A stretch of 64,000 bases of DNA from assembly GCF_056712565.1 (NCBI RefSeq), contig NZ_CM160072.1. One strand, 5' to 3'. A program made the translations under genes and the position numbers. Each line of letters starts with the position of its first letter. Position 1 is the first letter of the stretch. Below are positions 13,082-15,578 of the stretch, piece by piece. The notes under the pieces are model-generated. The model was not told the origin of the DNA, did not search any database, and saw nothing but the letters and a program-made list of their open reading frames with translations.

Positions 13082-14001
13082 GTTATCTGCTCTTGTTACC
13101 CCATATACGCATCGAAAACGCTAACGCTGTCTCCGGGTTGACCTGGGGATTCCCGTCGATGACCCATTTTCTCGGTTATGTCCATGCGCTTTCTCGCAAA
13201 GTCGTGGATGAATTTGGCGTAAGTTTTGATGGTTGTGCGGTAGTAAGCCATGAACAGCATATTCAGGCGTACAGCTCTGGGCGCGATTTTTAGTTCGCTC
13301 TCACCCGTAACCCATTAACCAGAGAAGGTAAAACCGCCTCGTTCAATGAAGAGGGCCGCATGCACTTGACGGTTTCTCTACTGATTGAATGTAATGGCGA
13401 AATCACCAATGGTGAATATGGCAGAAAAGTTCTTTGTGACTATCTGAAAATGCTTTGCCAGAGCCACAAACTGGCGGGCGGCAGCATTGTCAGTATGCGC
13501 GATCCGCAGCTTTTTCATGCGCCTGAAGATGAAAAGCAACTGCGTAAAATCGTCTGGCGGTTAATGCCGGGTTATGCGCTTTACGATCGCAGTGAATGGC
13601 TGGCTGAACATCACCAACAACATCCCGACATCTCGTTGCTGGATGCCTGGCTTGATTTCGCCGCGATTAAATATCAGGCCGAATCTCCGGCTGAAGACAA
13701 CAGCGCAAAATGGGTATACCAGCCGAAGCCAATACCTGGTTTCCTGGTACCGTTAATGTGTGGCTACCAACGCATTTCTCCTGTTTACGCACCCGGTGAA
13801 GTTGAAAATGCGCGCGACACCGTGACGCCATTTGCCTTTGCCGAAGCGGTATATGGCATTGGCGAATGGCGCGGATTACATCGCACTACAGACTTGCAAG
13901 CGCTGATGTGGCGTTACCGCACAACGGACACTGGCTACTATTGTTCGGCAACGCCAGTTGTTGATGATTTTACCTTTAATGAATATGACGATTTAGAATA
14001 A
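13078..14001 (+). pseudogene. cas5f: type I-F Cas5f (Csy2) interrupted by in-frame TAG at 13291..13293
   Basis: track ORFs 13078..13293 and 13360..14001 are in the same frame; read-through gives about 307 aa aligning to Csy2 along its length (LTWGFPS ... FALTRNPL ... GEWRGLH); ATGA overlap with cas8f. Confidence 0.8.
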
Positions 14002-14011
14002 GGACATAATT

Positions 14012-15013
14012 ATGGCAAAGGCTCCTGTAGCAATAAAAACGGCGTCGGTACTGGCATTTGAGCGCAAACTGGCAACCTCTGACGCGGTAATGTACGCAGG
14101 TAACTGGCAAGGAAATGAATGGCAACCCATTGAGATTCAGGAGAAAGCGGTCCGCGGAACCATCTCTAATCGCCTGAAAAATGCCATTGTCAGCGATCCC
14201 ACAAAACTGGATGCTGAAATCCAAAAAGCCAACCTGCAACGGGTGGATGTGGCTTCGCTTCCGGTAGATACGGATACGTTAAAGGTGGTGTTTACGCTGC
14301 GTGTGCTGGGTAATTTATCCACACCGTCAGTATGTAATGATATGGCTTACCAGGAGGCGCTTTCCGGGGTCATTGAAGGTTACATCAGCGAACATGGCTT
14401 TAAAGAGCTGGCGCTTCGCTATGCGCTGAATCTGGCAAATGGTCGTTTTCTGTGGCGCAACCGCATTGGTGCCGAACAGATCCAGGTGAAAGTGACTGCT
14501 AACGAGACGTCATGGACTTTTAACAGCCATGACTTCTCTTTACGTCAATTTGACCAGGGACAGGCAGCGGTCACGCAGCTGGCGGCCATTATAGAGCAAG
14601 GATTAAGCGCAAAAGAGTGGGTGATGCTTACCGTTGAAGCGCAGGTTCGTCTTGGTGCCGGGCAAGAAGTTTTTCCGTCGCAGGAGCTGGTACTCGACAG
14701 CAACAGTAGTAAAAGTCGCGTGTTATACCAGGTGGCTGGCATTGCCGGTATTCACTCTCAGAAGATTGGCAATGCTTTACGTACCATTGATACCTGGCAT
14801 CCAAAGGTTGATGAATTGGGGGCTATAGCCGTGGAACCTTACGGTTCTGTAACCAGTCGCGGTGTGGCCTGCCGTCAACCGAAAGAAAAACTCGACTTTT
14901 ATACCTTACTGGACAATTGGGTGACTAAAGGGATGAAACCAGACGTTGAGCAGCAGCACTACGTGATGGCTGTGCTGATCCGTGGCGGTGTCTTTGGTGA
15001 GAAATCGGAATAA
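14012..15013 (+). CDS. cas7f: type I-F Cas7f (Csy3), backbone subunit
   Basis: 333-aa [24 protein letters not shown] and [13 protein letters not shown] motifs match Csy3 as I recall it. Confidence 0.9.
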
Positions 15014-15023
15014 GGAGCTGCCA

Positions 15024-15578
15024 ATGGATCACTACCTTGAGATCCGCGTTCTGCCAGATCCTGAATTTTCGAGCGAAATGTTGATGGCGGCGTTATTTGC
15101 AAAACTGCATCGGGTATTAGGTGCAAGAGGGCAAGGCGATATCGGCGTGAGTTTCCCTGACGTAAATGTTATGCCTGGAGCGCGTTTACGCTTGCATGGT
15201 AGCGCCCAGGCATTGCAGGCGCTTGAAGCCTCAACGTGGCGTAAAGGACTAACGGACTATTGCCAATGTTCACCTGTCACTCCCGTTCCAGAAATAAAAG
15301 GCTGGCGAGTAGTAAGCCGCGTGCAGGTTAAAAGTAACCCTCAGCGTCTGTTAAGGCGTTCAGTGAAAAAAGGCTGGCTAACTGAAGAATAGGCAATTGA
15401 ACGACTGGCGACGCAGGCTGAACAGCGGACTGATTTACCTTTTCTCAATATGAAGAGTTTGTCGAGTCAGCAACTGTTCAAGTTGTTTATCCGTCATGGT
15501 GATTTGCTCAAAGAACCGGTTAAAGGGGAATTTAGTAGTTATGGATTAAGCGCAACCGCCACTATTCCCTGGTTTTGA
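15024..15578 (+). pseudogene. cas6f: type I-F Cas6f (Csy4) crRNA endoribonuclease interrupted by in-frame TAG at 15390..15392
   Basis: MDHYLEIRVLPDPEF start; track ORF stops at 15392, but the same frame continues AIERLATQAEQRTDLPF...FIRHGDL...YGLSATATIPWF to TGA 15576..15578, matching the Cas6f C-terminus. Confidence 0.8.

Follow-up and report, generated by a model that had tools for sequence, protein, structure and literature searches.

[quoted passage not shown] Open reading frames and their translations, RefSeq names in identical loci and homologues in the PDB give the gene order cas1, cas2-3 (a fusion), cas8f, cas5f, cas7f and cas6f, which is that of type I-F1. The 28-nt I-F repeat is found 13 times with 32-nt spacers at a spacing of 60 nt, and the matches of the window repeats to the Rfam family CRISPR-DR4 exceed the gathering score. 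The features are as follows.

6731..7058, plus strand: CRISPR3 array, 6 repeats (the last one degenerate) and 5 spacers
6939-6970: CRISPR3 spacer 4, matching IncF-type and other enterobacterial plasmids
6999-7030: CRISPR3 spacer 5, matching IncF-type and other enterobacterial plasmids
7231..8214, plus strand: cas1f, intact, 327 aa
8211..11444, plus strand: cas2-3 (cas3f), intact, 1077 aa
11448..11526, minus strand: degenerate mini-CRISPR with two repeat-like units, candidate autoregulatory cr-like RNA
11605..11631, minus strand: predicted target of the mini-array upstream of cas8f, CC PAM at 11631-11630
11774..13081, plus strand: cas8f/csy1, intact, 435 aa
13078..14001, plus strand: cas5f/csy2 pseudogene, rest of the frame preserved
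13291..13293, plus strand: amber codon Q72* of cas5f/csy2, CAG to TAG by C>T at 13291, read as the first hit
14012..15013, plus strand: cas7f/csy3, intact, 333 aa
15024..15578, plus strand: cas6f/csy4 pseudogene, rest of the frame preserved
15390..15392, plus strand: amber codon Q123* of cas6f/csy4, CAG to TAG by C>T at 15390, read as the second hit
15689..15776, minus strand: tRNA-Ser(GGA), a core gene between cas6f and CRISPR4, not a suppressor
16119..16507, plus strand: CRISPR4 array, 7 repeats and 6 spacers
16328-16359: spacer 9 of the window, in CRISPR4, matching RepFIB repB of resident plasmids with a CC PAM

Translation of the six cas genes confirms the starting observation of the initial annotation, namely that the operon carries two premature stops, both of them TAG, while cas1, cas2-3, cas8f and cas7f are full length. 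These four genes are free of internal stops and have the lengths of the intact orthologues in strains NC101 and M10. The frame of cas5f (307 codons) is interrupted by a single internal stop at codon 72, and that of cas6f (184 codons) by a single one at codon 123. Cas5f is the subunit that caps the 5' handle of the crRNA. Truncation at residue 71 removes 236 of its 307 residues and therefore no Csy surveillance complex can form. Q123* leaves 122 residues of Cas6f and deletes the C-terminal 62, including the equivalent of the catalytic Ser148 and the C-terminal domain. The full-length Cas5f and Cas6f required for functional I-F interference are thus both missing.

Csy2/Cas5f and Csy4/Cas6f of Pseudomonas aeruginosa PA14 (PDB-ID: 5UZ9, 6B44, 2XLK) are homologues of the two interrupted frames, with E-values of 3e-57 and ~1e-47. 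The equivalents of His29 and Ser148 of PA14 Csy4 are retained by the E. coli frame, but the stops end the products at residues 71 (Cas5f) and 122 (Cas6f). The cas6f stop aligns with Glu126 of P. aeruginosa Csy4, in agreement with the Glu named in the initial annotation, whereas the residue in E. coli is Gln. The change from GAG suggested from this alignment is nevertheless wrong: the ancestral E. coli codon is CAG, and the stop arose by a transition from CAG to TAG.

The ancestral codons can be read from the intact, active I-F systems of NC101, M10, ED1a, LF82 and NRG 857C. These share with the window the site, gene order and gene lengths, the repeat and the intergenic mini-array, but display CAG or CAA at both stop positions (CAG at both in NC101, CAA/CAG in M10). 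Their arrays are longer, with 10-18 spacers, and have at most the trailer-end spacer in common with those of the window. In UTI89 and DSM 30083 csy2 already contains the TAG, while cas6f still has CAG. In HS13-1 and SF-468 both genes are labelled in RefSeq as pseudogenes with an internal stop.

The occurrence of two amber codons together is not beyond chance. When all single-base routes to a stop codon in the six genes are considered, the probability of TAG per stop is 0.36 under uniform mutation, 0.41 when weighted by a mutation spectrum (used as a sensitivity check only) and 0.47 for transitions only. The probability that both stops are TAG is 0.13-0.22 over the three models; for both hits to lie among the csy genes, four of the six, it is about 0.24. 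That both stops are amber reflects transitions at CAG, which lead to a stop codon more often than any other route. Deamination of 5-methylcytosine at CCAGG (Dcm) produces the classical amber hotspots. Such an origin was considered and rejected, as the sequences around the two sites are TTCAGTT and AACAGGC, neither of which is a Dcm site.

A population comparison among complete E. coli genomes, using exact 61-mers, located the csy2 TAG allele in 124 of 237 I-F-bearing genomes, including UTI89, S88, APEC O1 and the type strain of the species. The cas6f TAG allele is present in 11 of 240, all 11 of which also carry the csy2 TAG. Nested allele sharing in combination with near-identity suggests that the 11 and the 124 genomes are each monophyletic, and the cas6f stop would accordingly be the later event, nested inside the csy2-TAG clade. 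Divergence within the clade is limited to 0-3 SNPs per 8.5-kb operon and 0-3 per 25 kb. Z0117EC0054 is identical to the window over the 8.55-kb operon, APEC E18055 over 25 kb and 2.7 kb, and SF-468 matches it at all but 1 nt of 17.7 kb. Over the long term all six cas genes display an omega of 0.05-0.16. Inside the clade, dN/dS is powerless, with two changes in 8 kb between the window and UTI89, both of them protein-altering. A second hit of another kind is found in IMT5155, which belongs to another sub-lineage and in which an IS66 insertion splits cas1. In SZQ1, a strain of a different lineage, csy1-csy2 is deleted.

The csy2 stop has a published precedent. Jiang, Maniv, Arain, Wang, Levin and Marraffini (2013, PLoS Genet 9:e1003844, Fig. 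S3A; PMC3784566) described the csy2 TAG of UTI89 and its CAG ancestor, together with a spacer matching pUTI89, and argued that cas inactivation resolves the conflict between this strain's spacer and its useful plasmid. The csy2 of UTI89 is identical to that of the window, with the same codon, TAG, CAG ancestor and locus, and in both cases a spacer matches the resident plasmid. UTI89 differs in lacking the cas6f Q123* of the window, and CRISPR3 of the window has three fewer internal spacers.

Spacers 4, 5 and 9 match more than 5000 plasmids. Some of these matches are not valid targets, since that of spacer 5 in one IncK2/Z plasmid is flanked by CT and not by the CC PAM. Spacer 9, in contrast, has valid targets in plasmids residing in the clade. 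In pSCU-122-1, carried by a csy2-TAG strain, it matches RepFIB repB at 32/32 positions with a CC PAM. In pEND_Eco 18055, carried by the double-TAG strain APEC E18055, it matches the same gene at 31/32 positions, with a PAM-distal mismatch and a CC PAM (the scan covered the first 50 kb of this 200-kb plasmid). Exclusion of PAM-flanked targets, as expected of a functional system, is therefore not seen in either the csy2-TAG or the double-TAG strain, and with such targets on resident IncF plasmids interference must be dead. Both elements of the case described by Jiang et al. (2013), a conflict between a spacer and a resident plasmid and an inactivated cas gene, are present. No chromosomal self-target was found elsewhere in the 64-kb window for any spacer with up to 6 mismatches allowed. 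Relief from self-targeting, one of the drivers proposed in the initial annotation, stays plausible with the resident plasmids (spacer 9 and RepFIB repB) as the target in place of the chromosome.

Taken together, two successive and independent C to T transitions at CAG glutamine codons very probably inactivated the interference arm of the I-F system in the ST95 lineage. The first, csy2 Q72*, would date from the ST95-complex ancestor and have become fixed in the complex. The second, cas6f Q123*, would have followed later in one sub-lineage, as further decay of an operon that was dead by then. Spacers against conserved IncF genes and the stable carriage of plasmids with PAM-flanked targets suggest that the first hit could spread as the loss of interference was tolerated. 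Beyond mere tolerance, the loss was probably favoured because plasmids of the pUTI89/ColV type could be kept.

The alternative that survives best is a purely neutral one, in which the csy2 stop rose to fixation through drift or hitch-hiking as ST95 expanded clonally, and the plasmid spacers are incidental and of no selective benefit. It is well suited to the extreme clonality described above, in which founder mutations would fix, to the frequent decay of cas genes in Escherichia and Shigella (PMC2886076), and to the csy1-csy2 deletion in the SZQ1 lineage. However, the resident plasmids of the clade carry perfect or near-perfect PAM-flanked targets, which are incompatible with an active system, and experiments in Staphylococcus have shown that such conflicts select cas mutants (Jiang et al. 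2013, PMC3784566). We therefore regard neutral fixation as possible but rather unlikely.

Read-through of the TAG codons, whether through their context or through a suppressor tRNA of the supE kind, would allow the Csy complex to be made and to function. Both stops are amber, both replace Gln, the residue that supE would insert, and both frames are otherwise perfectly preserved. Such preservation, however, is expected with 0-3 SNPs in the clade. In HS13-1, one of the double-TAG strains, the anticodon of the glnV/X tRNA-Gln is the wild-type CTG, and the only tRNA in the window is the tRNA-Ser(GGA). A search with a glnV query based on the C600 locus, which recovered C600 as a control, returned the supE allele in 155 genomes; the 60 carriers listed, by a glnV query that does not separate the alleles, are nearly all laboratory strains of K-12 type with genomes of 4.5-4.8 Mb. 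Moreover, three further long frames of the window end in TAG. The two stops are followed by T and G, bases that make for efficient termination in E. coli. In addition, the arrays are frozen and valid targets of spacer 9 are tolerated on resident plasmids. The suggestion of a host that reads through TAG finds no support in these observations, and a functional Csy complex made in this way is very improbable.

The region between cas2-3 and cas8f was considered because a derepressed Cre-type toxin had been put forward as a driver. It contains, on the minus strand, two repeat-like units, the first of which keeps the CTTAGAAA handle, separated by a spacer-like segment of 25 nt (11500-11476). The segment matches the predicted target at 11 of 13 positions (1-5, 7-11 and 13), all but 6 and 12. 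No second such site occurs in the window, and none of 20000 shuffled spacers gave a hit. The target is conserved, PAM-flanked and seed-matching, and lies in the putative promoter region of cas8. In M10, position 5 of spacer and target displays a compensatory change. The arrangement closely resembles the autoregulatory I-F1 mini-arrays described by Shmakov et al. 2023 (PMC10120712), with which it shares the location between cas3 and cas8, transcription opposite to cas3, a target upstream of cas8f with a CC PAM, and a short spacer mismatched to it at positions 6 and 12. From its sequence, the mini-array of the window is a candidate member of this kind; in contrast to the described ones, it cannot act here, as neither Cas5f nor Cas6f is complete.

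The effector genes might also have been lost in escaping from, or in interplay with, a CreTA-type RNA toxin-antitoxin guard in this region. In common with CreTA, the region has a repeat-derived guide RNA and a partially matching, PAM-flanked target within the cas locus, and the compensatory change in M10 is likewise in line with a guide and its target. However, a CreTA toxin is derepressed when Cascade is lost, so that a working module should prevent such mutations, not favour them, and here an entire pandemic lineage tolerates the lesions in its effector genes. In the intergenic region no toxin gene was found among the open reading frames or by Rfam, where an RNA toxin would be invisible to sequence alone. 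The lone small open reading frame downstream of the target (11699-11758, 19 codons) has lost its ATG in M10. The ST95 region differs from that of the intact NC101 at one base (11616), outside the paired positions, and there is therefore no sign of a disabled toxin. Position, orientation, spacer length and mismatches fit mini-arrays repressing cas8, and the involvement of a toxin guard appears most unlikely.

Errors of sequencing or assembly are next to impossible as the source of the two stops, since the identical TAG alleles recur in 124 (csy2) and 11 (cas6f) independent complete assemblies from differing laboratories, hosts and countries.

With the inactivation of interference by two transitions as the preferred reading, the intact adaptation genes call for little explanation. 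The initial annotation had proposed decay of interference with retention of cas1 and cas2-3. Loss of interference stands, but the retention carries no signal, given 0-3 SNPs in the clade, the frozen arrays and the IS66 insertion in cas1 of IMT5155. The clade is so young that intact neighbouring genes are expected, and the other four cas genes are very probably intact only because the time was too short for them to be hit. The leader-proximal spacer is shared by 134 genomes in CRISPR3 and by 122 in CRISPR4, and the arrays of seven sampled members differ solely by internal spacer deletions; new leader-proximal spacers, as expected from active adaptation, are absent from these genomes and arrays. 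A conserved ST95 spacer set was reported in a 2026 preprint.

The case is one of ordinary gene decay. The csy2 stop and its reading as a plasmid conflict have been known since 2013, and both genes are already pseudogenes in RefSeq. Nevertheless, caution is indicated, as the E. coli type strain and the ST95 model strains UTI89, S88 and APEC O1 frequently appear in lists of I-F-positive strains yet are incapable of interference. Touchon and Rocha (2010) recorded all six genes as present, leaving the spacers against self-plasmids unexplained, a puzzle which the csy2 stop resolves. Correlations of I-F presence with plasmid or resistance content need to be tempered accordingly. More tentatively, csy2 Q72* might have been an enabling or founding step of the ST95 complex: with the loss of a type I-F system whose fixed spacers are directed at RepFIB and other conserved IncF genes, virulence plasmids of the pUTI89/ColV type could have entered the lineage. 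In 2013 this was proposed for UTI89 only; for the lineage as a whole it is a hypothesis that we consider doubtful. If true, one CRISPR nonsense mutation would have founded a pandemic clone whose plasmids define extraintestinal and avian pathogenicity.

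The window contains a complete-looking type I-F1 CRISPR-Cas locus, which is flanked by clpA and infA and comprises the following features:

6731-7058, CRISPR3
7231-8214, cas1, uninterrupted
8211-11444, cas2-3, uninterrupted
11445-11773, intergenic gap of 329 bp
11774-13081, cas8f/csy1, uninterrupted
13078-14001, cas5f/csy2, one in-frame TAG
14012-15013, cas7f/csy3, uninterrupted
15024-15578, cas6f/csy4, one in-frame TAG
15689-15776, minus strand, tRNA-Ser(GGA)
16119-16507, CRISPR4

Translation places the single in-frame TAG of cas5f at 13291-13293 (codon 72) and that of cas6f at 15390-15392 (codon 123), in exact agreement with the initial annotation, which had described these two stops and four unbroken cas genes. 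Codon-by-codon comparison with the intact loci of E. coli strains NC101 and M10 identified CAG as the ancestor of both Q72* (CAA in M10) and Q123*, each of which requires one C to T transition. The cas6f stop indeed aligns with a Pseudomonas glutamate (Glu126 of PA14 Csy4), as the initial annotation stated, but the GAG to TAG change proposed on this basis is wrong, the codon being CAG in intact loci. Neither site fits a Dcm (CCAGG) hotspot. In RefSeq, csy2 of UTI89 and both csy2 and cas6f of HS13-1 and SF-468 are labelled as pseudogenes (‘internal stop’).

Enumeration of every single-base path to a stop across the six genes yielded a probability for TAG of 0.36 under a uniform model, 0.47 for transitions only and 0.41 with weighting by a mutation spectrum, a variant that served as a sensitivity check only. 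Since two amber stops are expected by chance in 13-22%, the fact that both are amber is uninformative; the chance expectation for both falling within the four csy genes is about 24%.

Eleven complete E. coli genomes match a 2.7-kb region at 100% identity, and a single base distinguishes the region from UTI89, S88, APEC O1, IHE3034 and the type strain DSM 30083. Together, these strains are representatives of the ST95 complex (phylogroup B2). Over 17.7 kb, the window shows 2 differences to DSM 30083 and 1 to SF-468. The population comparison suggested with the initial annotation used two 61-mers, each with one of the stops at its centre, as queries against 5,426 complete E. coli genomes. An exact csy2 TAG match was present in 124 of 237 gene-bearing genomes and the cas6f TAG in 11 of 240, which excludes a sequencing artefact. 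All 11 genomes with the cas6f TAG also carry the csy2 TAG, while UTI89 and DSM 30083 display the csy2 TAG, yet CAG in cas6f. The two stops thus arose one after the other, in nested fashion: the csy2 stop is old and fixed in the ST95 complex, and the cas6f stop is younger and occurs in one sub-lineage.

At position 16139, in the first repeat of CRISPR4, a C to T change converts CAGCTTAGAAA to CAGTTTAGAAA. Exact copies of a 91-mer with this change occur in 14 genomes, as against 11 for the cas6f TAG, and the change probably arose on the branch just preceding that stop. In the unrelated lineage of SZQ1 (H414), only 56% of the operon remains, without csy1 and csy2, the effector genes having been deleted independently.

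A search of 72,556 plasmids with the spacers of the clade (genomes with the csy2 TAG) gave matches of spacers 4, 5 and 9 to more than 5,000 IncF-type and other enterobacterial plasmids; among the targets are an antirestriction gene and RepFIB repB. Spacer 9 (16328-16359) matches repB behind a canonical CC PAM. The match is 32/32 in pSCU-122-1, from a host with the csy2 TAG in its chromosome, and 31/32 in a 200-kb plasmid of ColV type from APEC E18055, which belongs to the eleven double-TAG strains; the lone mismatch is PAM-distal. These plasmids would be incompatible with an active system. In the IncK2/Z plasmid of FDAARGOS_1301, a perfect spacer 5 match in an antirestriction gene (L012 291-332) is preceded by CT instead of CC, so even an intact system would probably not recognise this plasmid as a valid target for interference.

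Self-plasmid spacers in UTI89, APEC O1 and S88 were reported by Touchon and Rocha 2010 (PMC2886076) as hard to reconcile with targeting. Their Table S2 lists all six I-F genes as present and none as a pseudogene in these strains, so the csy2 stop was missed, which explains the puzzlement. The core of the finding has already been published, since Jiang et al. 2013 (PMC3784566) described the UTI89 csy2 TAG, its CAG ancestor and a pUTI89-matching spacer, and presented UTI89 as a case from nature in which cas inactivation resolves a spacer/plasmid conflict. Of the decay of interference with relief from self-targeting proposed initially, the loss of interference is supported and relief is plausible as a driver, but the targets are plasmids.

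Selective retention of the adaptation module is not borne out. Clade members show 0-3 SNPs relative to the window in the 8.55-kb operon and again 0-3 in 25 kb of core genome flanking it. In so young a clade, unbroken neighbour genes are the null expectation. Only two changes separate window and UTI89 within the clade, both altering protein. The per-gene dN/dS analysis that had also been suggested gave long-term values of 0.05-0.16 for all six genes, and since these include cas5f and cas6f, pseudogenisation is recent. The arrays of seven sampled clade members represent one spacer set minus internal deletions only, and the leader/first-repeat/first-spacer junctions of CRISPR3 and CRISPR4 recur in 134 and 122 genomes, respectively, so that no adaptation activity is apparent in these arrays and junctions. 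A conserved ST95 spacer set is independently described in a 2026 preprint. Moreover, in the csy2-TAG strain APEC IMT5155 (L010 1-2715), cas1f is split by the IS66-family element ISCro1, an independent second lesion within the adaptation module; second lesions are thus not limited to effector genes. Given the young clade, the selection history and the lack of adaptation activity, the intact adaptation module is uninformative.

Read-through of TAG is unlikely; plasmid tolerance and frozen arrays independently argue against a working complex. Three further long frames of the window end in TAG, and the sole tRNA there is tRNA-Ser(GGA). A search of glnV for supE (CTA) alleles recovered the expected positive control C600 and found the supE44 allele in 155 complete genomes. 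In double-TAG HS13-1, the tRNA-Gln adjoining ubiF carries anticodon CTG, not CTA (one strain, one locus). The HS13-1 ubiF-asnB interval (L006 18294-18493) holds only one tRNA-Gln(CTG) and one tRNA-Met, compared with a seven-tRNA cluster including tRNA-Gln(UUG) in K-12, reflecting either assembly collapse of repeated tRNAs or a real deletion. The C600 supE44 copy (L005 401-475) is left unannotated by PGAP next to annotated wild-type tRNAs, so that RefSeq feature tables do not reveal suppressor alleles.

Derepression of a Cre-type toxin is also unlikely, since no toxin gene is evident in the cas2-3/cas8f gap and a working CreTA guard would oppose effector mutations like these rather than favour them. 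A repeat search revealed a single isolated repeat-like sequence directly past cas2-3 on the minus strand, and inspection of this strand showed the following elements:

11526-11448, minus strand, degenerate mini-CRISPR, two repeat-like units around a spacer-like segment
11631-11605, minus strand, predicted mini-array target, CC-flanked, upstream of cas8f

The first repeat-like unit retains the CTTAGAAA handle and is followed by a 25-nt spacer-like segment and the second unit; a promoter-like site lies upstream. The spacer matches the target, the sole such site in the window, at positions 1-5, 7-11 and 13, with mismatches at 6 and 12, and no match came from 20,000 shuffled spacers. In the divergent M10 locus, position 5 is altered in spacer and target alike, a compensatory change. 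As judged from sequence, this architecture fits the autoregulatory I-F1 mini-arrays described and validated by Shmakov et al. 2023 (PMC10120712), which repress the cas8 promoter; no literature report of an E. coli I-F mini-array in this gap was found. The putative autoregulatory loop is simply broken in the window strain because Cas5f and Cas6f are truncated. Between target and cas8f start, 11655-11773 is conserved between ST95 and M10 far above both the adjacent 11540-11650 and cas8f itself (dS 0.66). As a 19-codon ORF at 11699-11758 has lost its ATG in M10, this conservation probably acts at the RNA or DNA level.

In conclusion, the interpretation in the initial annotation was partly right, but it was wrong on adaptation retention and ancestral codon and probably wrong on read-through and toxin. 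The two cas TAGs represent ordinary gene decay that has already been documented, in a lineage that is well studied, and interference is lost in the window strain. The csy2 stop may have spread by selection rather than by mere tolerance.
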